From Candidatus Amesbacteria bacterium (GTDB lineage: Bacteria > Patescibacteriota > Microgenomatia > CAZETR01 > Amesbacteraceae), in the NCBI GenBank assembly GCA_963736875.1, contig CAVTQH010000004.1, positions 253,899-311,559 of the forward strand: DNA of 57,661 nucleotides. The letters run 5' to 3'. A model generated the notes under the pieces. That model was not told the origin of the DNA, made no database searches, and worked only from the letters and a program-made list of their open reading frames with translations. The translations under genes were made by a program, and so were the position numbers. Below are positions 2,145 through 20,712 of the stretch, in pieces (within the stretch, counting starts at the first letter, position 1; each line of letters starts with the position of its first letter).

Positions 2145-3257
2145 CTATCTCAATCCCCCCACCACTTTTACTTTCCTCAGCAAATTTTCATCCTCCAGCA
2201 CTTTTCCGCACCCCCGGACCACAGCCGTCATCGGATCATCCGTCACATACACCGGCATCCGGGTTTCGTCCGAAAAAAGTTTTTCTATCCCCGCAATCAT
2301 ACTGCCTCCGCCGCACATCATGATTCCCCGCTCCAGAATATCGGATACCAATTCCGGGGGAGTTTCTTCAATCAGATCGGCAGCGGCAGAAGTAACCTGC
2401 TTCAACACCGGCATCAGAGCTTCCCGGATTTCATCGGAAGTAATCTTTAGACTTCGCGGCAGTCCCGTTTCCAGATCCCGGCCTCTGATGACCATCATTT
2501 TTACTCCCGACTTTCTCTCCTCTTTTTCCGTCATATCCTGAACACCCGGTGTCAGACTTTGAGCACTGTGAAAGGCCGAAACGTGCGCATTTCCCAAAGC
2601 AATTTTTACTTCCTCGGCCGTTCTCTCCCCCAATAAGACGTTGTACTTAAGGCGGATGTAATGAATTATTGCCTCGTCCATTTCATCCCCGGCTATCCTG
2701 ACCGATTTATTGATGACTATTCCCCCCAGTGAAATCACCGCGATTTCACTCGTCCCACCTCCAATATCAATCACCATTACCCCTCCGGCATCGGAAATGG
2801 GTAAATTGGCACCGATCGCCGCCGCCATCGGTTCTTCGATCAGGTAGCATTTCCGGGCACCGGCCGAAAGCGCTGCCTCCTGCACCGCCCGTCTTTCCAC
2901 TTCGGTCACACCTGAAGGAATACCCACCACCACCCGGGGCCGCGGTACCCGGGGAATCATCCGGCCCGATTCATGTACCATTGATATATAGTGTTTAAGC
3001 ATTACTTCGGTCGCATCAAAATCGGCAATTACCCCGCCTTTTAACGGCCTGATGGCTTCAATAGTCGCCGGTGTCCTGCCCAGCATCTTTTTCGCCTCTT
3101 CACCGATTGCCAGTATCTGCTTGGTTTTTTTATGCCGGGCAACGACCGATGGCTCCCGGATGACAATCCCCTTGCCTTTGACATGGACCAGAGTATTAGC
3201 CGTCCCCAGGTCAATTCCCACGTCATGCGATAAGAGCCCGAATATATAGTCAAACAT
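2145..3257 (-). CDS. mreB: Rod shape-determining protein MreB
   Basis: GIDLGTANT, IREPSVVA, IEEPMAAAIGA, DIGGGTSE motifs; start moved to ATG 3257 (MFDYIFG). Confidence 0.96.
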   Translation of the reverse strand: MFDYIFGLLSHDVGIDLGTANTLVHVKGKGIVIREPSVVARHKKTKQILAIGEEAKKMLGRTPATIEAIRPLKGGVIADFDATEVMLKHYISMVHESGRMIPRVPRPRVVVGIPSGVTEVERRAVQEAALSAGARKCYLIEEPMAAAIGANLPISDAGGVMVIDIGGGTSEIAVISLGGIVINKSVRIAGDEMDEAIIHYIRLKYNVLLGERTAEEVKIALGNAHVSAFHSAQSLTPGVQDMTEKEERKSGVKMMVIRGRDLETGLPRSLKITSDEIREALMPVLKQVTSAAADLIEETPPELVSDILERGIMMCGGGSMIAGIEKLFSDETRMPVYVTDDPMTAVVRGCGKVLEDENLLRKVKVVGGLR

Positions 3258-9453: not shown

Positions 9454-10275
9454 GTGAAGACCCGGTTAATCTTTTTCGGTTCCTTTCAAAACTATTCCGT
9501 CCAAATACTGGAACGATTATGCCGTGACTTTCAGGTAACGGCGGTAATAACCACCCCACCGGCCCCCAAAGGCCGGCATTTACACCTAGTCAAGAATGAA
9601 GCCCAAATTTACTCGGAAAAGCACAATCTTCCCTGTTTTACACTTGATACTTTGGATAATATCCCCTCTGATATTTCTCGGAATCCTCCCGATTTTATCG
9701 TCGTCTCCGGGTATGGAAAATTAATCCCCAAGATCTGGTTAAACCATCCCCAAATTATGTCGGTCAACATGCACCAATCATTACTCCCCCACTACGCCGG
9801 CCGGTGTCCTGCTGAATGGGCGATATTAAACGGGGAGACTCAAACCGGTGTAACTCTGATCCAAATGACGGAAAAATTTGATTCCGGGCCGATCTTGGCC
9901 CAAAAATCTCTTCCGATTGATCCCGAAGATACCCGCGAAACCCTCTACCGGAAGCTTTACGCCATGGGAGCGGAAATGTTAGTTTCCGCTCTACCTCAAA
10001 TCGCTTCCGGCCAAATTCAAGCTTATTCTCAACCCGGCGGAGACAATTTTTACGCCCGCCAGATTACCCGTCAGGACGGCTTCGTCCCCTGGGAAGAATT
10101 TCAGCATCAGCTGAAAACAAACGACCGGCAATTGGCGACAAAGCTGCGTGCCCTGGCCGGCTGGCCCGGGGTCTGGACTACCGATCCGGCAGGTAAACGT
10201 CTCAAATTGGTTTCTCTTTCTCCTCCCCTAGTGCAGTCCGAAGGTAAAACTCCTATACCGTGGCGGCAGCTTTAG
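9454..10275 (+). CDS. fmt: Methionyl-tRNA formyltransferase
   Basis: LIFFGS, VSGYGKLIP, NMHQSLLPHYAG..P, TGVTLIQM...DSGPI motifs; start placed at GTG 9454. Confidence 0.92.
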   Translation: MKTRLIFFGSFQNYSVQILERLCRDFQVTAVITTPPAPKGRHLHLVKNEAQIYSEKHNLPCFTLDTLDNIPSDISRNPPDFIVVSGYGKLIPKIWLNHPQIMSVNMHQSLLPHYAGRCPAEWAILNGETQTGVTLIQMTEKFDSGPILAQKSLPIDPEDTRETLYRKLYAMGAEMLVSALPQIASGQIQAYSQPGGDNFYARQITRQDGFVPWEEFQHQLKTNDRQLATKLRALAGWPGVWTTDPAGKRLKLVSLSPPLVQSEGKTPIPWRQL

Positions 10276-10489
10276 TTCCGGTCTCTGTCGCTTTTCTGCT
10301 TTCGCCTTTCAAAAGCCTCAGACACTTGGTACACAGCTTCATTCCCATCCATTTGTGCAGATTGGGTTTGAAAACCTTTCTGGTTCGCGGTGCCCGTTTC
10401 TTCCACCGTCCGCCGGCTACACCCCGCCTGTGGGCGTGAGTTCCGCCGTATTGGATTCCCCTGGCACAGTTGTCGCAAACGTATGACAT
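10253..10489 (-). CDS. rpmB: 50S ribosomal protein L28
   Basis: MSYVCDNC...RTRKVFKPNLH...KLCTKCLRLLK, the L28 pattern with CxxC pairs. Confidence 0.88.
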   Translation of the reverse strand: MSYVCDNCARGIQYGGTHAHRRGVAGGRWKKRAPRTRKVFKPNLHKWMGMKLCTKCLRLLKGESRKATETGTKAAATV

Positions 10490-10528
10490 AATAGATAGTG
10501 ATTTTATCATTGCCCGGTACCTTTTACT

Positions 10529-11146
10529 ATGTTGGATTTACTTTTATCCCAGCCTGCCGCTTTTGTATTGATCTTCGGTGGTCTGATTATCGCCATCGGG
10601 ATCCACGAAGCCGCTCATGCCTTCATGGCAGACTATCTGGGTGATCCTACTCCCCGATCGCTGGGCCGTACCAACCTTAATCCCCTGGTTCACCTTGATC
10701 CCCTGGGAACAATGGTGATTCTGGTTACAGGTGTCTTTGGTTGGGGTAAACCCGCCCCCTATGATCCCTTTAACCTCCGGCACCCCCGTCAGGATACCGC
10801 CCTGATCGCTCTGGCCGGGCCGGCGAGTAACATTATCCTGGCGGTTATTCTGTCAGCTGTTCTGCATTTTGTATCATTTCCACCTATTGTCTATACCATT
10901 TTTATCCGCCTCATAATTATCAACGTCTCATTGTCCGTCTTTAACCTCATGCCTGTCCCGCCTCTTGACGGTTCAAAAATCATCGGATTGTTTATGTCCA
11001 ACGAATCCGCTCTCCGGTTTCAAAATCAAAATGGCCTGATGCTTCTGGTTCTCATCCTCCTGCCTATTTTCGGAGGTTACTCCATCGCTTCCATTGTTAT
11101 TTCTCCCATTGCCACGGCAATTCTCAGGCTTCTCCTGCCGTCGTAA
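10529..11146 (+). CDS. Site-2 protease (M50) family membrane metalloprotease
   Basis: HEAAH, ALAGPASN and NLMPVPPLDG motifs. Confidence 0.93.
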   Translation: MLDLLLSQPAAFVLIFGGLIIAIGIHEAAHAFMADYLGDPTPRSLGRTNLNPLVHLDPLGTMVILVTGVFGWGKPAPYDPFNLRHPRQDTALIALAGPASNIILAVILSAVLHFVSFPPIVYTIFIRLIIINVSLSVFNLMPVPPLDGSKIIGLFMSNESALRFQNQNGLMLLVLILLPIFGGYSIASIVISPIATAILRLLLPS

Positions 11147-11160
11147 AGACATTGACAGCT

Positions 11161-11169
11161 TGGTATAAT
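11161..11169 (+). promoter_or_regulatory. Extended -10 promoter (TGn-TATAAT)
   Basis: TGGTATAAT; the predicted start at 11176 coincides with the first base of a long closing stem. Confidence 0.65.
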
Positions 11170-11175
11170 TAAATT

Positions 11176-11389
11176 GTCCTGCCGAGAGGGCAAGAACAAG
11201 GATATTTTCCTTGACTGTTTAAATCCCTTAGGGCTGGATATAAATAAGTAAAATTATATATATCCTAGGGCATAATTCTGCAAAGGTCCTAGTACCTGTG
11301 CAGACATTCCCGATTCGAAATTATTTCGGGAGAGCTCGCCCACTTAAATGAGCCTCGGGGAAAAACCTTGTCTACCCAATTGGCGGGAC
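11176..11389 (+). ncRNA. Structured non-coding RNA of unknown class (6S-like closing stem plus 4 hairpins)
   Basis: End-to-end pairing: GTCCTGCC/GGCGGGAC, GGG/CCC, ACAAGG/CCTTGT, TTTTCCTTGA/TCGGGGAAAA. Four internal hairpins. T7 tract at 11391-11397. No ORF. Confidence 0.7.
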
Positions 11390-11438
11390 ATTTTTTTCGT
11401 GTAGCGTAGATTGTTGTAAAATTACTCTGGCTACTATT

Positions 11439-11510
11439 GCCGCCTTAGCTCAGTGGCAGAGCAATTGTTTTGTAAACAATAGGTCCTCGGTCCGAATCCG
11501 AGAGGCGGCT
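11439..11510 (+). tRNA. tRNA-Thr(TGT)
   Basis: Acceptor GCCGCCT/AGGCGGC, anticodon arm ATTGT-TTTGTAA-ACAAT. Confidence 0.95.
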
Positions 11511-11557
11511 CCCAAAAACAAACACTAATTTGCAAATGGTAATATAATCTAGTTAAC

Positions 11558-12187
11558 ATGGACATTGACACGATAAAGAAGCTGTACTACAGAGAAAAAT
11601 TAGGTTCACGGGAAATCGCCACAAGGCTAAATAAAACAGTTTGGCAAATTCTCCGTTTTATGAAAAAACACCATCTCAAATGCAGAACTACCGCAGAAAC
11701 CAATAAATTTAAATTTAACAGAACTCCCCTCTCTTATAATAAAAAGGTTCATATGAACGCTCAGGAAAAACAATTATTTGAAAACGGTTTAATGCTGTAT
11801 TGGGCAGAAGGATGTAACCAAACTAATAAAGTCGTGGATATGTCAAATTCTAATCCTAAAATGGTAAAAATATTTCTAAATCTATTAACAAATGTTTATC
11901 AGGTGGATCAAAAACGTATTAGAGTGCTTCTGTATTGCTATCAAAATCAGGATATTAATAATCTCAGAAAATTCTGGTCAAATTTTTTAGACATCCCCCT
12001 GTCCCAGTTCATTAAACCGTATATCAGAAAGGACTTTGATCTCAATAAAAATACAAAAATGCCATATGGCTTGGCACACATTCGCTACGCAGATACGAGA
12101 TTACTGGCTCAAATATTCAAAGATATTGATATAATTTCAGGTAAACTTTGCCGGGATGGTGGAGTGGACAATCACACGAGTCTGTAA
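11558..12187 (+). CDS. HTH + LAGLIDADG-like endonuclease-family protein
   Basis: N-terminal HTH-like segment (SREIATRLNKTVWQILRFMKK), GLMLYWAEG helix and SNSNPKMVKIF; 3' end overlaps tRNA-Tyr. Confidence 0.7.
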   Translation: MDIDTIKKLYYREKLGSREIATRLNKTVWQILRFMKKHHLKCRTTAETNKFKFNRTPLSYNKKVHMNAQEKQLFENGLMLYWAEGCNQTNKVVDMSNSNPKMVKIFLNLLTNVYQVDQKRIRVLLYCYQNQDINNLRKFWSNFLDIPLSQFIKPYIRKDFDLNKNTKMPYGLAHIRYADTRLLAQIFKDIDIISGKLCRDGGVDNHTSL

Positions 12188-12232
12188 AACTCGCGCCTTA
12201 TGGCTACCCAGGTTCGAATCCTGGTCCCGGCA
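12150..12232 (+). tRNA. tRNA-Tyr(GTA)
   Basis: Acceptor GCCGGGA/TCCCGGC, anticodon arm CGAGT-CTGTAAA-ACTCG, long variable arm, TTCGAAT T-loop. Confidence 0.95.
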
Positions 12233-12253
12233 CAAATCTGCTACAATTACCCT

Positions 12254-12607
12254 ATGGCTTTTAAATTCCAGTCCCATGTTGTCTATGAACAGCTAAGCCT
12301 TTTTACTAAAGAAATCTTCGTTCTAACCGGCCGTCTTCCCAATTATGAAAGCAATGGTTTGATCCAGCAAATCAGAAACTTAGGGAGCGGTCTCCTTCAG
12401 GATTTTGCCCAGGGATATATCCGTACCGAGCATTCGGATCCCAAAGTCGCTTTGGATAAATGCATCATTTCCGTCGCCAAAATCGCTTCCTTAATAGATC
12501 TGAGTTGTCAGCTGGGGTATATTGATCACCCCACCCACACCAAACATATTTTATCCTGTGACGAGATTACCAAGCGCTTGTACGAAACGCAAAAATCCCA
12601 CAAGTAA
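12254..12607 (+). CDS. Four-helix-bundle protein (23S rRNA IVS/bAvd-like family)
   Basis: LPNYESNGLIQQIRNLG...FAQGY...LSCQLGYI pattern; TGCTACAAT 7 nt before ATG 12254. Confidence 0.75.
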   Translation: MAFKFQSHVVYEQLSLFTKEIFVLTGRLPNYESNGLIQQIRNLGSGLLQDFAQGYIRTEHSDPKVALDKCIISVAKIASLIDLSCQLGYIDHPTHTKHILSCDEITKRLYETQKSHK

Positions 12608-12630
12608 ACCGTTAGAAAATCAGTCGGTTA

Positions 12631-13107
12631 TTACTTCCCGGCCGATCTCTTCTTTAAAAAAGGCGGCAATTCCGAGTGTGTCAGGCTTTTAATTTCCGGC
12701 TTATTCTCCTTCAATATTCGTAAAGTAGCTCTACTTCTGCGCTTCATTTCTTTTAGTATTTGATCCGTTTGCTCTTTTAATACGGCTACCCGTTCCGGGG
12801 CATCCTTTTCCAAAGACGCCAGGACCGCAGGCACTTTAATAGCCCAGATATCCGCAATCTCTGACCGGGTTTGAGCAATCTTTAATTTTGCAGCCTCCAG
12901 CCTCTGCCTGTCTGCTTCTAATCTCAGGTGTTCCCGCCAGGCTGCCGACTCAGGCGATTCGGGAAAGGCTTTGCTAATAAATTTCAATGCTTCATCCGAA
13001 ACCTGCTTCCATGCAGGCGTATACTGCCTGATCAGGATTAAACGCCGGTTTAGGTTCTCATCTGCTTCCGGAGTTTGCCCTCCAAATCCGTTTTTCCTTT
13101 CAGGCAT
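12631..13107 (-). CDS. Hypothetical coiled-coil protein
   Basis: ATG 13107 overlaps the upstream stop codon (ATGCCTGA), consistent with translational coupling. Confidence 0.6.
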   Translation of the reverse strand: MPERKNGFGGQTPEADENLNRRLILIRQYTPAWKQVSDEALKFISKAFPESPESAAWREHLRLEADRQRLEAAKLKIAQTRSEIADIWAIKVPAVLASLEKDAPERVAVLKEQTDQILKEMKRRSRATLRILKENKPEIKSLTHSELPPFLKKRSAGK

Positions 13108-14662
13108 CGGTTTCACCTCCGTTCTCCGGTTTATTCGGCCCCCCGCAACGGGAACAGACCGAACCGGCCTCAAGCGTCTGGCCGCAATATTCACAAACTC
13201 TCATCACTCCCCGCTTCCTGTCCTGATCAACTATCAAATCGCGCAATTTTGTAATATTTTCCTCAACACCCTCTATCAAACGCCGGCCGGCATTTAATGT
13301 TACTATGTCACTCTTTCTCGTCGGTATACCGCTTTCGTCAACCCAGTTTGAAGCTTCTATCGCTGTTCGAAACAACCTCTCTTCGATTTGCCGCTTCTTT
13401 TCCATCAACCGCTGAATCGGTGAACTATAATCCATTTGGGCATCCTTTCCCAACTCAATATCAACTTCCGTGACCAGATCCCCCTGAGGCAGTAAACCTA
13501 AAACCACTTTCGGCCTGATCGGAAATTCATAAACCGCTTCATGCTCAAAAAGTGCCTTCCTGGCAAATTCTTCCGCCTGTATAAAATCCCGGTTTAGCAG
13601 TGCCAAATCAGCAATCCGTCTGATGGCATGATCCGCATCTCTGACCACCATTCTGGCCAAATCCTCATCCTTCTCATAATCCACCAGCACCATCACTTCA
13701 CTTAAATTCAGTTTATTCTGGAGGGAATTTACTGTCGGCTGCAGAAATTGAGTTGCCTTTTGCCGCAGCAGGTCAAAGGTGGAAATTGAACCTTTTTGGA
13801 TCAGAATATCTTGTACCGCCTGTTCCCCGCTGCTGATCTTGTCCAGGGGGAATTTTTTAAAATCCGGAGACCCACCCCTGGATTTCATCCGGCGTACGTC
13901 ACTGACTGACAGATAAGTCGGGCTTAGCCCCCACAATGTATTTTCCAGTTCCGTCTGCTCTCCCGGATCCATTATTAAATGCGCCGTAATCAGATCCGGT
14001 ATAAACACTACTTTGGGTGTTTGCCCCTGCATCGCCTCTAATGCCTGGTGAATTCTGTCATAAAACGATTGCAATTCCGCTCTGCTTCTGGCCAGAGCCA
14101 TATCATTTGACCTGGAGCTTACATGTCGGTGTAATATGCCTGCCAGATCCTTGGCTTTTCTAATTCCCAGCAGTAGCTGCAGTTCAGCGGCAATTACTTT
14201 TTCTTCCCGGGTCGGAGGATATTCATTGTCCAACTGGCCGGTATTTACTCTTTTGGTTAATTCTTTCGCCTCACTTATAATTTTTGATTCCAAATCCCTG
14301 ATTAAATCATAGTTTTCCGGAATAATACCCATGAATTTTTGCTCCAGACCCGTTACTACCCTCTCCACATTTTCAGGAAATGACAATTCCGCTTTTTCTG
14401 CTCCGGCTTTTCCGGCTACGGCATTTCCCAGACCGGCGATTTTCTCCTGCTGCCTGTCTATCCATGACATCCCTCCCCGGGGCGTTTTCCTGGTTAAAAT
14501 ATATGCCAGACCGATTCTGGCTAAAGCTTCTGCTACTCCCGGCTCATGGTTAAACGGTATAACTTCACCATCGGGTGATATATTTGTCTCCGGCGGCAAA
14601 CCTAATCTCTCACGCCTTTCAGCTTGGAGCTGTGCCCATTTGGCCTCGTACGGATTTGGCAT
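13100..14662 (-). CDS. Hypothetical helical protein with C-terminal zinc ribbon
   Basis: 520-aa ORF ending CEYCGQTLEAGSVCSRCGGP. Confidence 0.75.
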   Translation of the reverse strand: MPNPYEAKWAQLQAERRERLGLPPETNISPDGEVIPFNHEPGVAEALARIGLAYILTRKTPRGGMSWIDRQQEKIAGLGNAVAGKAGAEKAELSFPENVERVVTGLEQKFMGIIPENYDLIRDLESKIISEAKELTKRVNTGQLDNEYPPTREEKVIAAELQLLLGIRKAKDLAGILHRHVSSRSNDMALARSRAELQSFYDRIHQALEAMQGQTPKVVFIPDLITAHLIMDPGEQTELENTLWGLSPTYLSVSDVRRMKSRGGSPDFKKFPLDKISSGEQAVQDILIQKGSISTFDLLRQKATQFLQPTVNSLQNKLNLSEVMVLVDYEKDEDLARMVVRDADHAIRRIADLALLNRDFIQAEEFARKALFEHEAVYEFPIRPKVVLGLLPQGDLVTEVDIELGKDAQMDYSSPIQRLMEKKRQIEERLFRTAIEASNWVDESGIPTRKSDIVTLNAGRRLIEGVEENITKLRDLIVDQDRKRGVMRVCEYCGQTLEAGSVCSRCGGPNKPENGGETDA

Positions 14663-14707
14663 AAAGTAATAATTTCAAAATAATAATATCGGGCAGAAGA
14701 AAAACCG

Positions 14708-15157
14708 TTATGACCGGGCAGTGTCGCGGGATTTGCTCTTGTTTGTGTCAGTGTTTTGGCCAATATTACCGTTTTTGGGTATTGGTTTTGTTCGCACACC
14801 CTGCTTCCGGCTTTCCGCTTGTGCCATTGAAAATAAGGCCAGTGTTATTCTCTGAAACAAAGTCCCCCAGTACCCGGTCTGCTTTTCCCTTCCGGCCTTT
14901 ACCGGTACTTCTTCATCGGGTATTTGCTTCTCTGTTTTCCTCCCCTGAGATTTTTCTCCGATCATGGCCCGCCACCTGTCCGCCCCGGGCGGCTGCCACC
15001 CCTCGGTTTTTTTCATGCCTTCCGCAAATTCATCAACTGCGGACTGTCCCGCCTGATATAAACGGGTTTTCATCCGGTCATCCGCTCCGGCCAGAAAAGC
15101 CCCGATTTTCCCGACTTTTTTATCATTTTCTTTAAAAGACATATGGTATTCTAACAA
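14708..15157 (-). CDS. Hypothetical protein
   Basis: 149-aa ORF co-oriented with its neighbours. Confidence 0.55.
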   Translation of the reverse strand: MLEYHMSFKENDKKVGKIGAFLAGADDRMKTRLYQAGQSAVDEFAEGMKKTEGWQPPGADRWRAMIGEKSQGRKTEKQIPDEEVPVKAGREKQTGYWGTLFQRITLALFSMAQAESRKQGVRTKPIPKNGNIGQNTDTNKSKSRDTARS

Positions 15158-15461
15158 TCAACCTATAATATTTCAAGTAAAAAAATACACTTGCGTCGGT
15201 CATGGTGATGGGGGGTTTAAAAAAAGCTCTTGAAAAACTGAAAATAAATTCAGTGGCTTAAACCCGTATCCATACAAACCCTGCCGACGCAAGTGTTGAG
15301 GTGAATCTAAATAGTTACTTCTTGTTGAGTATCCTCCAATCTTTAATGTTGGATCGTTGCCGCATGTAACCAGCCCTCTAAATCGTTCCATATCACCCTT
15401 ACCCTTCTGGTCTCTCCCCCAATATCGTAATCATCGATGCATGATGTTTCAAGCACGTTTA

Positions 15462-15965
15462 CTACTTGATTTTTTGGTATTTCGGCAATAATGGGTGTGG
15501 TTCCGAGAGGACCGGAGTGTAAGCGAGGCAGTGGGATCCCATATGACTGATGTGATTACCGGTGGGGATTTGCGGACAAACTGACTGGGTTGGATTTGGA
15601 GTGTTGGCTTGCGTTGGACTGGGTCCTCCTTGTGTTGGTACAACCATCGGAGTTCCGATTGGCGGCAAAGCTCCCCATTCCTCACGGATTTCGATTATGG
15701 TGTTATTGGCTGCAATAAAAGCCTTTAGAGGGAACCATCCCGCATACCAAATCAATCCTAAGGCTAATCCGCTTAGAGCTGCAAAAAACAGAACTGTTAG
15801 CAACAAATGGATTACTCCCAACATACGTCCTGCAGCATACTCTTCAGCTTTATGCCAAATCTTCAATCCGATCCATATTCCAAAACCAAACAGTGCCAAT
15901 GCCCACCAGTATTCGGCTATGTAACCCGCTATGAAATTTAATATACTGAGAAATTTTTCAAACAT
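15462..15965 (-). CDS. Membrane protein with Pro/Thr-rich tail
   Basis: Two TM helices; AGGAGG Shine-Dalgarno upstream of ATG 15965. Confidence 0.7.
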   Translation of the reverse strand: MFEKFLSILNFIAGYIAEYWWALALFGFGIWIGLKIWHKAEEYAAGRMLGVIHLLLTVLFFAALSGLALGLIWYAGWFPLKAFIAANNTIIEIREEWGALPPIGTPMVVPTQGGPSPTQANTPNPTQSVCPQIPTGNHISHMGSHCLAYTPVLSEPHPLLPKYQKIK

Positions 15966-16067
15966 TTTATTACCTCCTGGTCAAATCTTTTGTTGTTATT
16001 CATTTCTTATCTCTTATCGTAATTTTTATCTCTTTGCCTCCTTTCTTTTTCTGTCATTTCTCATTTC

Positions 16068-18356
16068 TTACCTCCATTGAAGGTACTTCGCCATTACCAG
16101 ATCTATGTATTCCTGTCCCCCATACCAGTTGTAATGATGAGCGGCCTCAGCATAGCTTCCGTATTGGCGGTAATGTGATGCCAAAATTTGTGATCCCCAG
16201 AGAACATTCATTTCCGGATCTTTGAGTTCTTCGATTGTAGGTCGACCTTTGAAGCAATGTCCTCCGCAGCTTAAGGCTCCGCAGGCAATCGTTTTCGGGG
16301 TTAAATCCGAAGGCATTATCTGCATCAGTCCTACTGCATCACACTCAGACATCGCGTCCGGATCTCCTTTTGACTCTACATCCATAACTGCTGCAATAAA
16401 CGCAGAGTCAATCGAAAACTCTTCGGAATTTTGGTCGATAAGGTCACACCAGCGTCGGATTCTCTCGGGAACACTTGATTTTAACGAACATTCCCCCGGA
16501 ACCGGTGGAGTCGGTGGATCAGGTGTTTCACCCGAAACTTTCCCTGCCAGGTAAGCCGCCACCAGTATAAAAAGCACCAGTGCTGTAACGACTATACCCA
16601 GATTCCCCAGACATCCTCTTAACTTTTTTCTCACTACATAGTGACCTTTATGATTCCTGGTAACCCGGACATATACTCTCACCCTTAAAAACAGGTTGAT
16701 TACAATGGCTGTTGCCAAAGCTGCAATCTTCCAGTTTGCTAAAAGAGTGATTCCGGTCAGCCAAGCCCAAAGAGCCTGTGAACTTATTTCTCTTATTTGC
16801 GGCCAGAAAAGCCATATTAAAGCCAGCTCAACTAACCACCACCTCAGACTCTCGAAAAAGGCTGACTTCCCTATTCTCCACCAATATGGACCATGATCTT
16901 TAATCCACACCAGTGCCTCTGATGACTTATGCGGAAATAACCACACAATCAACAGGAAGACAATCCCCGTCATCAGTAGTCCGCCCAGGCAGTAAAGCCA
17001 GGAAGGAATAGCCGGAGGAGTGGGATTTGGTGGAACTTCAGATTCAGATTCCATCCACATGGTCAGGGTATCCCCGTCAATCTTCCAGTGCAAAATAACC
17101 GGATAGTCAAAGGGGTTAGTTACCCTGACATCCATCTCGGCACATTTGTAGTTCACTGAGGGGATACATACCGTAGCTACATATTGCTGGGGTACACCGG
17201 GTACAGGTGCATGTGTCGGATTATCACGCTCGACCTCCAATTTTCCCATAGATGCCACATAAGACACCATGGAGGCTGAATTGCATGAACCATCACCGAT
17301 TCCACCTGTACTTGGTACTACCATTCCCTGCTCCCTTTCGTATTTTTTACTTCCGAAAAAGGCGTTTACACTGTGTGTACCTGGGGTTATGGTCCATCCG
17401 CCTTCAAAATTGTTTAAATCCATCTGGTTCATTTTCGAAAGATCTTCTCCCGAAGTCGGCCAGGCAAAAAATGCACGGACATTGTGTTGATAATCCGTAT
17501 CGCCGGGTTTTTGGTCACTGATGGAAAATTGGAATTTTGAAGGTTCAGGTGTTGGTACTGGTGTTGGAATTGGTGTAGGAATGACTTCTTCCCTGCCACG
17601 AATCAGGTTAAACAAAACCCCGAATCCGTCTTCCAGATATTTTGTTATCCGGGTAATTTCCGGGTGGTCGTCAAACCAATTAATGATGACGTCTAAAATT
17701 TTCACCCAGGCTGATAATTTATCACGCAGTTCTTTAAGTTTTTTAAGCCATTCCGGATCATTTGGATTTGGTGGATTTGGCGGTTCAGGTGGTTCAGGTG
17801 GTTCAGGCGGACCCGGAGGGGTATCATCTATTCCATCCCAAAATTGGTCATGGTTTTTAATGTTTTCCCCTGAAATCAGGTCCCTAAACCAGCAATGACA
17901 ATGCGGTTCCGAACTCCTGCCGATTGAATCAACCCAACCTATCACTTCACCCGCATCCACATGCTTAATTCCGTTAACTTTGCATCTTAGATGTAGAGCT
18001 CCGAACTCGTATTTTCCGCTGTCGCTTTTTAAAGCAAAAACAGTGTTCCCGACACCGTCATGGTAACAGGTGGCAGTGGTCGTACCGGAAAACGGGGCTA
18101 AAATCTCAGTACCTCTCGAAGCTATGTAATCATAACCTTTGATAGGCCCTGCAACGCAGCTCCCGTCTTCACATCCGTCATGATAATAGGGTGACCCCCA
18201 TCTCTCCAGGATGTACCAATCAGTACCTTCCGGGAATATAAAAAATGGTCCCGGGTGAGACGACGCACGTGTAGTTGAGACATCAAAGATGCTCAACAGC
18301 GCAACCAGGAGTAATAATCCCAGTGCGCAAAGTAAGACTTTCTTTCTTTCCCGCAT
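16068..18356 (-). CDS. Multidomain cell-wall enzyme: M23-like + VanW-like + TM helices + SLT lytic transglycosylase
   Basis: GYDY..TEILAPFSG..VDAGEVIG..SSEPHCH (M23); GDGSCNSASMV..VATV..TNPFDYPVIL (VanW-like); AVMDVESKGDPDA..GLMQIMP (SLT); AAGGAG SD before ATG 18356. Confidence 0.82.
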   Translation of the reverse strand: MRERKKVLLCALGLLLLVALLSIFDVSTTRASSHPGPFFIFPEGTDWYILERWGSPYYHDGCEDGSCVAGPIKGYDYIASRGTEILAPFSGTTTATCYHDGVGNTVFALKSDSGKYEFGALHLRCKVNGIKHVDAGEVIGWVDSIGRSSEPHCHCWFRDLISGENIKNHDQFWDGIDDTPPGPPEPPEPPEPPNPPNPNDPEWLKKLKELRDKLSAWVKILDVIINWFDDHPEITRITKYLEDGFGVLFNLIRGREEVIPTPIPTPVPTPEPSKFQFSISDQKPGDTDYQHNVRAFFAWPTSGEDLSKMNQMDLNNFEGGWTITPGTHSVNAFFGSKKYEREQGMVVPSTGGIGDGSCNSASMVSYVASMGKLEVERDNPTHAPVPGVPQQYVATVCIPSVNYKCAEMDVRVTNPFDYPVILHWKIDGDTLTMWMESESEVPPNPTPPAIPSWLYCLGGLLMTGIVFLLIVWLFPHKSSEALVWIKDHGPYWWRIGKSAFFESLRWWLVELALIWLFWPQIREISSQALWAWLTGITLLANWKIAALATAIVINLFLRVRVYVRVTRNHKGHYVVRKKLRGCLGNLGIVVTALVLFILVAAYLAGKVSGETPDPPTPPVPGECSLKSSVPERIRRWCDLIDQNSEEFSIDSAFIAAVMDVESKGDPDAMSECDAVGLMQIMPSDLTPKTIACGALSCGGHCFKGRPTIEELKDPEMNVLWGSQILASHYRQYGSYAEAAHHYNWYGGQEYIDLVMAKYLQWR

Positions 18357-18643
18357 GGGACACACTCCTTTCGTATCTAAAATGTATTTTTTTCCCTTAA
18401 TAAGGGCCGAGCGGTACCGACCTGTTCACAAAAATATGTAACTCAGATCACCACTGCTCGGCCCCCAAATGGGAAAGTATCTCAACCTATAGACTGTAAC
18501 TAATCTCGATTCACTTGTTAAAGTGCTATTTCCAACATTTCTAACTCATCGGCGCATATGCCGATCAGAAATATCTGAAATAAGGCAGATTAAATTACAA
18601 TCCAAAAATGGCTTCTGCGAATAGAAGCCTTTTGGATGACCGC

Positions 18644-18672
18644 ATTGTACCTTCTGCTGAACCTATAGTCAA
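18644..18672 (-). promoter_or_regulatory. Sigma70-type promoter TTGACT-N17-TACAAT
   Basis: -35 at 18667-18672, -10 at 18644-18649, 17-bp spacer; points toward the M23/SLT gene. Confidence 0.7.
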
Positions 18673-18698
18673 TCTAATTTTCCTTCTTCTGAAGTGAG

Positions 18699-18770
18699 AG
18701 CCTGGAGTGGGAATCGGACCCACGACCTCATTCTTACCAAGAATGCGTTCTGCCACTGAACTACCCAGGC
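18699..18770 (-). tRNA. tRNA-Thr(GGT)
   Basis: Acceptor GCCTGGG/TCCAGGC, anticodon arm CATTC-TTGGTAA-GAATG. Confidence 0.93.
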
Positions 18771-18781
18771 AGCCTGTCCTA

Positions 18782-20026
18782 TTATAACCGATGGCTATCT
18801 GGCGTCGTACATCGTTCTGATAAATTCCGGCAAGGACTGGTCACCCCTTCGTCCACCAGCCTCAATCCCTCCTGTAAAAGCCCGACAAAACCCGCCTTTT
18901 CCAGTTCCAGTTTAAACTCCGTCTCCCCCGCTCCGGAAGTAATCAGCCTTCGGACTTCATCCCCGATTTCAATTAGCTCATATATTCCCACCCGCCCCCG
19001 GTATTTGGACTGGTAGCACAGATCACATCCCCGTCCCTGCATCAGTCTTCCGGGATTTAATCCTTTCTCCCTGATATAAACTGCATGCTCGGGAGGTGTC
19101 GGCAGATATTCCTCCCGGCAATGTTCACATACCCGCCGCATCAGCCGCTGGGACAATACCGCCCGTAAAGCATAATTGAGCATATACCGGTCCACTCCCA
19201 GATCAATCATCCGGTAAAGCGCTCCCACGCTGTTTCTGGCATGAACCGTGGAAATTACCAGATGCCCGGTCAGTGAAGCCTGAATGGCAATTTTGGCTGT
19301 TTCCGCATCCCTGATTTCGCCGACAAACACAATGTCGGGATTAAGCCTTAAAATCATTTTCAGTCCTGACACAAAATCCATCCCGATATCCTCCCCTACC
19401 TGGATCTGGTTTATCCCCGGCATCAGGTATTCAACCGGGTCTTCCAGAGTCATGATATTGACTTCACCGTTATTTAGGTACTTCAGACAGGAATGCACCG
19501 TTGTCGTCTTCCCCGACCCGGTAGGACCGCATACCAGAAACAATCCGTACCTTCCCGTAATATTGCGTTTGATTTTTTCCGCCAGATCGGGGGACATTCC
19601 CAGCTGGTCAAATTCGGTAAATTTCGGCGCGTCAAGGACTCTTAGAGCAATCATCTGTCCGAAATTAGTGGTTACAATCGCCGCCCGCAGGACGTACGGA
19701 TGTTCCTCCACGTCAAAGCGGATTTTGCTTTCCTGGGGTTTCCGGTTTTCCGTCACGTCCATATTTCCCAGCACCTTTATCCGCGAAATCACCTGGTCAT
19801 AAGAGCCGTGCGGCATTACCCCGAACGTCTGCAGCACCCCGTCCACCCGAAGCCTGACTATGATTTCCTTTTCCTGCGGTTCAAACAGAATATCCGAAGC
19901 GGACAGCTTAATCGCCTGGGCAATTACCTGGTCTACAATTTCCACCGGCGAAGACATTCCCGAAAGTGAAAAACTTTGTGAGTCCACCCTTTTATTGTCA
20001 AGCGTCTTGACCTGGGTGTCAATCAC
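18782..20026 (-). CDS. PilB/GspE-family secretion/pilus ATPase (C-terminus probably frameshifted)
   Basis: ASDILFEP, RLRVDGVL, GPTGSGKTT, TLEDPVEY, LRLNPDIVFVGEIRD, AVLSQRLMRRVC..C, C..C..YRGR. An alternative frame ends VTSLAEFIRTMYDAR*. Confidence 0.9.
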   Translation of the reverse strand: MIDTQVKTLDNKRVDSQSFSLSGMSSPVEIVDQVIAQAIKLSASDILFEPQEKEIIVRLRVDGVLQTFGVMPHGSYDQVISRIKVLGNMDVTENRKPQESKIRFDVEEHPYVLRAAIVTTNFGQMIALRVLDAPKFTEFDQLGMSPDLAEKIKRNITGRYGLFLVCGPTGSGKTTTVHSCLKYLNNGEVNIMTLEDPVEYLMPGINQIQVGEDIGMDFVSGLKMILRLNPDIVFVGEIRDAETAKIAIQASLTGHLVISTVHARNSVGALYRMIDLGVDRYMLNYALRAVLSQRLMRRVCEHCREEYLPTPPEHAVYIREKGLNPGRLMQGRGCDLCYQSKYRGRVGIYELIEIGDEVRRLITSGAGETEFKLELEKAGFVGLLQEGLRLVDEGVTSPCRNLSERCTTPDSHRL

Positions 20027-20086
20027 CCCTTATAGTAAGTTGTTAGAAATTAGTCTTAAAACCTTTTCGAAGGGCGGTGAATATTT

Positions 20087-20479
20087 TTGGACCCTAAACC
20101 TGTTTCCTGTATCAATTGCCAAGCCGTAACCACCAATGATGGCCGGACAGTCTGGGTGTGTGAACAGTGCGGAATCGAAAATACGCCCGCCGCTCCCGCC
20201 CCGGTCGATGCAGCTGATGCCCAGGCTGAAATTTCCAGCGCCGCCGCTGCCGTGGAAGCCCCTCCCGTTCCGGAGGTAGCCGCCCCCGTAGTCGAGCCGC
20301 CGCTTACCATGCCGGTCACTCCGCCCGTTCAGCCTATCAGACCCGCACCGCCGGTTACTCCGGCTGCTGCCACCACCACCACCACCACTACGCTGCCTCT
20401 TCCATGGCATCCATGCCCTCTTTCAAACAGCCGGTTTAAATCGCAGTTTAAGTCTGCCGCTTTACCGGGATCGGGATAA
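20087..20479 (+). CDS. Zinc-ribbon protein with Pro/Ala-rich tail
   Basis: CINC...VCEQCG, then PA/PV-rich low complexity; true C-terminus uncertain. Confidence 0.65.
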   Translation: MDPKPVSCINCQAVTTNDGRTVWVCEQCGIENTPAAPAPVDAADAQAEISSAAAAVEAPPVPEVAAPVVEPPLTMPVTPPVQPIRPAPPVTPAAATTTTTTTLPLPWHPCPLSNSRFKSQFKSAALPGSG

Positions 20480-20496
20480 TAGGGTAAAATCCTCGC

Positions 20497-20670
20497 ATGG
20501 CAAAAAAAGGTGCCCGCCAAATTTTTGGGTTTACTTGCTCTGTCTGTAAATCCCAGAATTATATTTCGGAAAAAAATAAGGTCAACATACCTGAAAAGAT
20601 TGAGTTGTCCAAATTCTGTTCCAAGTGCCGCAAACACACTCCCCACAAGGAAAACACCAAGCTCAAATAG
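20497..20670 (+). CDS. rpmG: 50S ribosomal protein L33 (57 aa, absent from ORF track)
   Basis: Manual translation MAKKGARQIFGFTCSVCKSQNYISEKNK...IELSKFCSKCRKHTPHKE; adjacent to tRNA-Trp. Confidence 0.93.
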   Translation: MAKKGARQIFGFTCSVCKSQNYISEKNKVNIPEKIELSKFCSKCRKHTPHKENTKLK

Positions 20671-20712
20671 ACTTTCTTCTCCCGTTTGGATAAGTTAAAA
20701 TTACTCTTATAT

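Follow-up and report, generated by a model that had tools for sequence, protein, structure and literature searches.

How does a protein-coding gene come to end inside a tRNA gene, and what kind of gene would do so? The question is raised by a stretch of 57,661 nucleotides (nt) from Candidatus Amesbacteria (contig CAVTQH010000004.1 of assembly GCA_963736875.1, positions 253,899 to 311,559), referred to here as the window, in which an open reading frame (ORF) encoding a protein of 209 amino acids (aa) fills the spacer between genes for tRNA-Thr and tRNA-Tyr and has its stop codon within the anticodon loop of the latter. We consider it probable that the ORF is a free-standing selfish gene of the homing-endonuclease type that lives in tRNA 5' leaders, with a nuclease activity and a mobility that we infer. 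The parts of the locus, in window coordinates, are as follows.

11439..11512, plus strand: tRNA-Thr(UGU), the upstream neighbour (ARAGORN; Rfam RF00005, 68.9 bits).
11558..12187, plus strand: the ORF, with an ATG start and 209 aa ending in GGVDNHTSL before the stop (ORF listing).
12150..12233, plus strand: tRNA-Tyr(GUA) as delimited by ARAGORN (the Rfam match, 57.1 bits, ends at 12232), with its anticodon GTA at 12184-12186.
12164..12187, plus strand: the last seven codons of the ORF and the TAA, within the tRNA overlap (predicted local distance difference test, pLDDT, below 50 for residues 203-209).

Positions 12150-12187 belong to both genes, as the last 38 nt of the ORF and the first 38 nt of tRNA-Tyr, and the stop codon TAA (12185-12187) is made up of anticodon bases 2 and 3 and the next A, in the anticodon loop. 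A preliminary description of the stretch had placed the ORF in the tRNA-Thr/tRNA-Tyr spacer with its stop in this loop, which ARAGORN, Rfam and the ORF coordinates bear out; the end coordinate that it gave, 12232, is the end of the tRNA, whereas the ORF ends at 12187. It had also seen no intron, and a scan of positions 10000-14000 with Rfam at E<=1 detected neither an intron nor any further RNA family. The ORF is flanked by two complete tRNAs and is not located in an intron or intein. According to ARAGORN the tRNA-Tyr gene is the only copy in the assembly and it must, therefore, work.

This ORF is a genuine gene and, on the explanation that we favour, a functional one; it belongs to a large protein family that has no name. 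A search of proteins clustered at 90% identity yielded 102 homologues at E<=1e-3, one of which is 93% identical, has 209 aa and comes from a separate assembly; the named homologues are from Gottesmanbacteria, Woesebacteria and 'Patescibacteria group' records. An exhaustive search of 50%-cluster representatives gave 2099 matches at E<=1e-3, 406 at E<=1e-10 and 46 at E<=1e-30, and at least 569 stretches of GTDB species genomes encode a relative (569 of the 600 scanned among the matches listed). The family occurs in Patescibacteria (the candidate phyla radiation, CPR) and in records titled Omnitrophota, many of the GTDB record titles being unreliable. Neither Pfam nor NCBIfam holds a family for the window protein, none of the homologues found carries a Pfam domain over the core, and the ESM Atlas returned only clusters named 'hypothetical protein', with scores <=0.85. 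The possibility raised earlier that a sequencing error masks a stop further upstream is unlikely, because the 93%-identical homologue has the same length and because 14 of the 113 family ORFs surveyed below likewise end 38 or 39 nt into a tRNA.

How often homologues end inside tRNAs, a point raised when the ORF was first described, was surveyed in 111 loci, consisting of the best 80 of at least 569 GTDB loci, two loci of the same genome as the window and 29 from relatives, so that the loci are best-scoring ones and not a random sample. Family ORFs were located with a hidden Markov model (HMM) and tRNAs with ARAGORN; there were 115 non-redundant ORFs, two of which were left out as lacking the C-terminal part or the closing stop, and the 113 intact ones were counted. 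The stop lies inside a same-strand tRNA in 51 of the 113, and the overlap proved, therefore, to be family-wide and not peculiar to the window locus. The gap to the tRNA is 0-20 nt in 25 further ORFs and 21-100 nt in 12. Overlaps of 10 nt (13 ORFs), 15 nt (10) and 38/39 nt (14) recur, and from our reading of the sequences these lengths would be the first in-frame stops given by conserved tRNA positions, one for each frame. The end of the conserved core, when extrapolated, falls within -23 to +58 nt of the tRNA start in 88 of the 113 ORFs, with a median of -0.5 nt; by this measure another eight adjoin a tRNA that is split by a group I intron (Rfam RF00028, nhmmer; a figure from which no enrichment is claimed), two have a tRNA at 61-130 nt, three are on loci that end too soon and 12 have none. 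In the first alignment several homologues share the same tRNA-coded C-terminal peptide.

As a control, 1043 stop-to-stop frames of at least 150 codons were taken from the 1.0-Mb genome that contains the window. Thirteen of these lie equally near a tRNA and only three end inside a same-strand tRNA, all three being endonuclease-like, namely the window ORF, a paralog at tRNA-Ile(tat) and a LAGLIDADG_3 gene that is considered below. The running of these ORFs into tRNAs is more than chance, and the stop within the tRNA is a family-wide by-product of a gene that adjoins a tRNA 5' end.

The paralog (C3:54177-54872; locus L002, 1471-2148) ends 21 nt inside tRNA-Ile(tat), and in its locus we recognised by eye an upstream VirD4/TraG-like ATPase and, downstream on the opposite strand, an integrase-like ORF. 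At two other loci tandem pairs of family ORFs precede a single tRNA, Lys(ctt) at L070 (2689-3360 and 3339-4019) and Met(cat) at L095.

The choice of tRNA follows the phylogeny of the proteins closely. A FastTree dendrogram of the 113 proteins, with the tRNA-coded tails left out, was labelled with the tRNA that each gene abuts, giving 88 labelled rows in 19 states, the 25 unlabelled rows being excluded. The label changes 20 times on the tree, compared with a minimum possible of 18 and with 53-60 changes in 200 shuffles, and separate clades are seen for Tyr(gta), Ile(tat), Arg(gcg), Trp(cca), Leu(gag), Lys(ctt), Gln(ttg), Met(cat), Thr(ggt), Ala(ggc), Arg(tct) and Gly(gcc). The window copy, lodged between Thr(UGU) and Tyr(GUA), falls in the clade of tRNA-Tyr(GUA). 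Kin share labels, and a label match alone does not prove targeting, but the tree shows that each lineage keeps its own tRNA across hosts titled as several candidate phyla; the Tyr and Lys(ctt) clades both mix records titled Omnitrophota and Patescibacteria, titles that are often unreliable.

At a given tRNA the gene is present in some relatives and absent from others. Members of the family were found in 31 of 61 related genomes, with one to four copies each, and the Tyr type (E<=1e-77) in five of the 61 (G000, G009, G027, G028, G045), which are distributed among four family codes; a sixth Tyr-type copy, in genome G003, is cut by a contig end. When 30 tRNA-Tyr loci from relatives were compared, four were occupied by a family ORF and nine had tRNA-Thr(tgt) directly upstream, with spacers of 3, 7, 22, 22, 25, 25, 27, 33 and 34 nt. 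Four more have long Thr-Tyr spacers of 291-918 nt (L115, L116, L118 and L124) which contain other genes and in which hmmsearch --max detected no remnants of the family gene, and in the remaining 13 the locus has no same-strand tRNA upstream or the closest one is something other than Thr(tgt). Presence and absence at the same site among relatives is the pattern by which free-standing homing endonuclease genes are recognised. The preliminary description had taken the ORF for a free-standing endonuclease-like gene inserted in the Thr-Tyr spacer and had proposed a search of relatives for an empty site; nine relatives with spacers of 3-34 nt, together with the lack of an intron, support this view of the locus. 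In genomes G001 and G003 a member of the Thr(ggt) clade occupies the next spacer, Tyr-Thr(ggt).

With the family alignment as input, AlphaFold2 modelled the full protein at a pLDDT of 92.1, and a model of the core alone reached 94.3. The following parts can be distinguished.

11558..11722, plus strand: N-terminal helix-turn-helix (HTH), residues 1-55 (AlphaFold2 helices 3-12, 17-23, 28-37 and 45-55).
11729..12163, plus strand: LAGLIDADG-like core, residues 58-202 (AlphaFold2, VIA-align and the predicted homodimer).
11759..11812, plus strand: motif helix, residues 68-84 (ending LMLYWAE), and G85, with the E84 codon at 11807-11809.

Residues 1-48 match HTH DNA-binding domains structurally with Z of 4.4-5.9, and the N-terminus also gives weak HTH profile matches in Pfam and the PDB. 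The core comprises strands 93-97, 122-128, 155-157 and 172-177 and helices 68-84, 100-113, 133-144 and, finally, 180-199, its first hairpin being short, and the tRNA-coded residues 203-209 are predicted to be disordered. When the core was compared with 48,161 representative chains using VIA-align, LAGLIDADG folds accounted for nine of the top ten matches, and the full model gave a similar result. The best match was 7qsu_A, the endonuclease domain of the TliVMA intein (Z 8.4, root-mean-square deviation (rmsd) 3.2, 91 of 145 residues aligned), followed by I-DmoI (6.4), WhiA (8dy9_I, 6.4), E-DreI (6.2), I-Vdi141I (5.6), WhiA again (3hyj_D, 5.6, and a further match at 5.4), I-Tsp061I (5.3) and PI-PkoII (5.2), while I-CeuI, I-CreI, I-MsoI, PI-SceI, PI-PfuI and I-CvuI appear lower in the list. 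The argument for a LAGLIDADG fold lies in the consistency of this list and not in the height of the Z values.

The motif helix ends, as in LAGLIDADG proteins, with an acidic residue followed by glycine. Y81, E84 and G85 are invariant in all 51 sequences aligned, and in a wider set position 84 is acidic in 46 of 46 (E in 45, D in one). From the alignment ranges and the residue numbers of I-DmoI, E84 may be the counterpart of the catalytic Asp/Glu of that enzyme. The core is also predicted to form a homodimer, with an ipSAE of 0.72 against 0.00 for the best of three controls; among proteins of solved structure, 20 of 30 one-chain pairs and one of 23 single chains attained the mark set for this score. 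At least 90% of the contacts agree between runs, the partner pLDDT is at least 86, and the predicted symmetric interface involves helix 69-84 of both copies (83:83, 79:79 and 76:76) as well as residues 101-112 and 193-201, which is, in the model, the geometry of a LAGLIDADG dimer. The window ORF gave no match to PF01541 (GIY-YIG), and a layout like that of WhiA was not found, since there is one core domain, the HTH is N-terminal and PF14527 is not matched. On the predicted structures this is a divergent LAGLIDADG-like family that lies outside every LAGLIDADG family of Pfam.

Other nuclease genes occupy the same kind of site. In the genome of the window a LAGLIDADG_3 gene (C2:39758-40777; L163, 1456-2457, minus strand) encodes 333 aa (PF14528, E 2.8e-10), in which an N-terminal HTH and two motifs can be recognised by eye, and it ends 15 nt inside tRNA-Ser(GCU). 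Its family numbers 470 proteins at E<=1e-10, some of them named 'LAGLIDADG family homing endonuclease' by NCBI, and is found in eight of the 61 relatives; five of these eight copies end at or inside tRNA-Ser (overlaps of 0, 15, 15, 52 and 52 nt), and the other three comprise one on a locus that ends too soon, one that is truncated and one without a tRNA. Among the long Thr(tgt)-Tyr spacers of relatives, that of L124 contains a GIY-YIG gene (1081-1395; PF01541, E 1.1e-15), that of L116 a gene for a 260-aa zinc-finger protein (1677-2456) with a sub-threshold match to Phage_endo_I (E 0.0054), and that of L115 a TatA-like peptide, recognised by eye. Relatives of the family are, in addition, encoded on 13 viral contigs of IMG/VR (L164-L176, 11.7-499 kb), some of which could be misbinned cellular DNA; they have 1-19 tRNA genes within 2 kb on either side, with 19 tRNAs in 4.2 kb at L166, and in three the distance to the adjoining tRNA is no more than 75 nt. 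This setting agrees with the precedent of SegB from phage T4, which is compared below. No member of the family was matched in the GenBank phage collection.

The eight intron-split tRNAs behind family ORFs (L006, L014, L015, L023, L026, L059, L092 and L102) were missed by ARAGORN and recovered only by Rfam and nhmmer. At these loci the start of the ORF and its conserved core lie upstream of the 5' exon, and at L023 and L026 the open frame continues through the 5' exon into the intron. At L014 the group I intron (2797-3110) lies between U35 and A36 of tRNA-Tyr(GUA), which recalls the collaborative homing treated in PMC3984707, whereas the tRNA-Tyr of the window has no intron. An intron is also found just upstream of the ORF at L048, L068, L072, L054, L087 and L089, and upstream on the opposite strand at L091 and L095.

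In the genome of the window itself, two group I intron matches fall just under the Rfam cut-off of 50, with 49.3 bits (C3:57737-57937, minus strand) and 38.8 bits (C2:23186-23389, minus strand). The ARAGORN list for this genome lacks tRNA-Asn and has a single CAU tRNA, and intron-split tRNAs may be hidden at the two sites.

LAGLIDADG endonucleases in rRNA insertions of the CPR, and free-standing endonucleases in the tRNA clusters of phages, are already known. I-ShaI, as described in PMC11270868, is a LAGLIDADG endonuclease from CPR rRNA insertions, and the present family resembles I-ShaI and enzymes of the I-CreI type in its single motif helix ending with an acidic residue and glycine, in the predicted dimer through that helix, in a predicted core resembling the LAGLIDADG fold and, for I-ShaI, in the host group. 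It differs from them in the lack of sequence or profile similarity, in an extra helix, a short first hairpin and an added N-terminal HTH, and in being free-standing in a tRNA 5' leader rather than in an intron, an intein or an rRNA gene; the word tRNA does not occur in the text of PMC11270868. A closer parallel in location is SegB of phage T4, a free-standing homing endonuclease gene in a tRNA cluster. According to PMC2330249 the enzyme recognises a sequence within tRNA genes, the T-psi-C motif, and relatives lack the gene in tRNA regions that are otherwise homologous. SegB is a phage-borne GIY-YIG enzyme that is reported to cut the 3' ends of many tRNA genes, whereas the present family is LAGLIDADG-like and mainly chromosomal and adjoins the 5' end of one specific tRNA, with a putative cleavage activity, and SegB may serve as a working analogy only. 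The open-access full texts searched, supplements aside, contained no account of the family, nor of a chromosomal homing niche in tRNA 5' leaders.

The LAGLIDADG_3 proteins of about 330 aa share the layout of an N-terminal HTH plus endonuclease and the tRNA niche with the window protein; they differ in having two canonical motifs, in presumably being monomers and in passing the Pfam threshold, and hhalign finds no similarity between the two. WhiA, another pairing of a LAGLIDADG-like scaffold with an HTH, ranks high among the structural matches, but it is a protein of two domains whose HTH is C-terminal, occurs universally in its lineages and is not known to be linked to tRNAs, while the present family has one domain and an N-terminal HTH, has kept the acidic residue and is patchily distributed.

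With regard to expression, two candidate elements were read from the sequence.

11543..11548, plus strand: a TATAAT hexamer that ends 9 nt before the ATG.
12127..12135, plus strand: TGATATAAT, an extended -10-like element within the 3' end of the ORF, 14 nt before tRNA-Tyr.

No Shine-Dalgarno-like motif was found upstream of the ORF, and the TATAAT hexamer is possibly the promoter of a nearly leaderless mRNA; a two-hexamer promoter scan gave nothing above shuffles and did not list the hexamer at 11543. Of 108 family ORFs, 34 have a -10-like hexamer that precedes the start codon by 4-10 nt, as against 115 of 466 long frames genome-wide, and two have a Shine-Dalgarno-like motif, as against 49 of the 466. 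The leaderless layout was dropped as a trait of the family since it is common genome-wide; to judge from these motifs, the host organism may well use leaderless mRNAs widely. The element TGATATAAT could possibly provide tRNA-Tyr with a promoter and transcript of its own. Across the census, a -10-like hexamer 5-22 nt upstream of the tRNA occurs in 17 of 90 ORF-occupied tRNAs compared with 18 of 26 tRNA-Tyr genes without an ORF; since so few occupied tRNAs have an element of their own, co-transcription is likely, and the gene is probably transcribed together with its tRNA. The earlier suggestion that tRNA processing could limit expression of the ORF is plausible. A gene for transfer-messenger RNA (tmRNA) is present in the genome (C2:41558-41943).

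We would explain these features as follows. The protein, an HTH joined to a single divergent LAGLIDADG-like domain and probably paired as a homodimer, would, in genomes without the ORF, recognise and cut the unoccupied junction of leader and tRNA or else the tRNA gene in its 5' part, and repair from the occupied copy would then copy the ORF in, as happens with SegB in the tRNA clusters of phages (PMC2330249). The coding region would end at the first base of the tRNA, many copies having no stop of their own, and reading would continue to the first in-frame stop that the tRNA offers, at nt 8-10 or 13-15 or at the anticodon-loop TAA at nt 36-38, adding a short tail that is presumably disordered. 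Cleavage by RNase P at position +1 of the tRNA would leave the mRNA of the window copy without a stop.

A number of observations weigh against this explanation. The preliminary description called the ORF LAGLIDADG-like, and this part stands on the predicted fold, the motif helix and the predicted dimer, whereas the HMM, Foldseek and profile-profile comparisons do not support it. In the HMM search against the LAGLIDADG families no match reaches threshold: the window protein matches none of PF00961, PF03161, PF14528 and PF14527, and PF14528 appears only sub-threshold in three of 51 members, at best with E 0.0035. Foldseek searches of the PDB with the full and core models returned no LAGLIDADG protein and no match at E<=0.001, and the OmpA-like rows that it listed (E about 3e-3, TM <=0.41, rmsd about 7 A) were not taken as real. 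With phmmer and hmmsearch the PDB yields weak HTH matches only and no LAGLIDADG protein, and hhalign against the LAGLIDADG_3 protein of the same genome and against the alignment of 32 sequences built from it yields probabilities of only 0.6% and 0.2%. The Z values from VIA-align are middling, and Z below about 8 can reflect a merely common arrangement; in the core model strands 3 and 4 are separated by an additional helix; and the dimer score may stem from the memory that the model has of solved LAGLIDADG dimers, indicating likeness and not binding. On the genomic side, 12 of the 113 ORFs have no tRNA within 130 nt, and the clades broadly track host groups, such that vertical descent with loss could yield the same tree. 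Only one candidate with an internal stop was found (in genome G005), which is little sign of a cycle of decay. The tRNA-Tyr alleles of occupied and empty sites include D-arm variants on both sides, none of which separates them, and neither a target nor an immunity difference can, therefore, be deduced. Mobility and homing are, finally, what we infer from the loci and not what we observed.

An alternative is a domesticated DNA-binding protein, in the manner of WhiA, that would bind at the promoter or leader of the downstream tRNA, regulate its transcription and no longer be a nuclease or mobile. The WhiA chains among the best structural matches (8dy9_I, Z 6.4; 3hyj_D, 5.6), the HTH, the strong conservation with nearly all copies intact (113 of 115 ORFs) and the broad agreement of clades with host groups are all in keeping with such a role. 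We nevertheless hold it to be unlikely. WhiA, so far as is known, has lost the acidic residue of the motif helix, which the present family has kept in 46 of 46 sequences; occurrence in only 31 of 61 relatives, in 0-4 copies and with clades on different tRNAs, would be odd for a regulator in 1-Mb genomes; and the niche is shared with bona fide nuclease genes (GIY-YIG and canonical LAGLIDADG_3) and extends to relatives in viral contigs. Less probable again is that a once-mobile endonuclease has become an inactive, slowly decaying passenger, retained only because its deletion could damage tRNA-Tyr, a single-copy gene, at its promoter or 5' end. The ORF does lie between a -10-like element and the tRNA, and with own elements in 17 of 90 occupied as against 18 of 26 ORF-free tRNAs the tRNA may need transcription through the ORF; a full-length frame with all the invariant family residues, a confident model and strong conservation without decay throughout the family are, however, not what a passenger would show.

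An action on RNA, as a maturase of LAGLIDADG type or a pre-tRNA leader factor assisting the adjacent pre-tRNA or a group I intron, we regard as very unlikely, although LAGLIDADG maturases exist, eight of the 113 ORFs adjoin intron-split tRNAs and the L014 intron separates U35 from A36 of tRNA-Tyr. Against it, 88 of the 113 adjoin intron-less tRNAs, that of the window included, the conserved core and the start are never inside an intron, and the conserved acidic residue would point to catalysis on DNA. That the ORF is a chance frame, or one lengthened by a sequencing error, has practically no probability left: nothing beyond the unusual overlap speaks for it, and it is refuted by the hundreds of homologues, including the same-length one with 93% identity, by the recurring ending at +38/+39 in 14 of 113 ORFs and by the confident AlphaFold2 model.

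The homing-endonuclease explanation can be taken a step further, to a proposal that we advance only tentatively and consider doubtful. The tRNA 5' leaders would then constitute a dedicated homing niche in ultra-small bacteria, used by at least two LAGLIDADG-type lineages without mutual sequence similarity and by GIY-YIG genes, and the gene itself would be the leader of the pre-tRNA. The need of the cell for the tRNA would ensure its transcription, cleavage by RNase P at tRNA +1 would turn about 45% of the family mRNAs, including that of the window, into non-stop mRNAs which tmRNA would clear, and translation would compete in time with tRNA maturation, a race that would fix the dose of endonuclease.

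The surroundings of the locus differ from those in relatives, where a tight same-strand cluster Thr(tgt)-Tyr-Thr(ggt)-(Trp) is kept. The tRNA-Thr(ggt) of the window (18698-18770) is on the opposite strand and 6.5 kb away. Right behind tRNA-Tyr there is a gene for a 117-aa protein (12254-12607, plus strand) of the 23S rRNA-intervening-sequence family PF05635 (E 9.1e-09; 35.9 bits, the cut-off being 33.8), a family that is often found beside mobile or inserted DNA. The interval 12234-20712 holds four ORFs without any Pfam family and looks like an insertion or an inversion. An integrative element was rejected as an interpretation, with no integrase family matched by Pfam in nine neighbours within the window. 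Two further genes of the region were identified by the Pfam scan.

16068-18365: M23/SLT/VanW protein.
18782-20026: T2SSE-type ATPase.

If the homing-endonuclease explanation is correct, a protein family with thousands of members and without a name in Pfam or NCBIfam would gain an assignment based on structure and a precise genomic rule, that of adjoining the 5' end of one specific tRNA. For annotation, it is relevant that ORFs reading into tRNAs are usually trimmed or dropped. The homing endonucleases of the CPR would extend from rRNA insertions to tRNA leaders, in chromosomes and in phage-like tRNA arrays, and the clades, apparently matched to different tRNA genes, would provide a natural set of enzymes that may be useful for studying the evolution of target specificity. 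The overlap of mRNA and tRNA raises the question of whether RNase P processing, the rescue of non-stop mRNAs and the dosage of a selfish gene are coupled, and a built-in brake of this kind, if it exists, would allow a genome of 1 Mb to harbour, over time, a nuclease directed against an essential tRNA gene.

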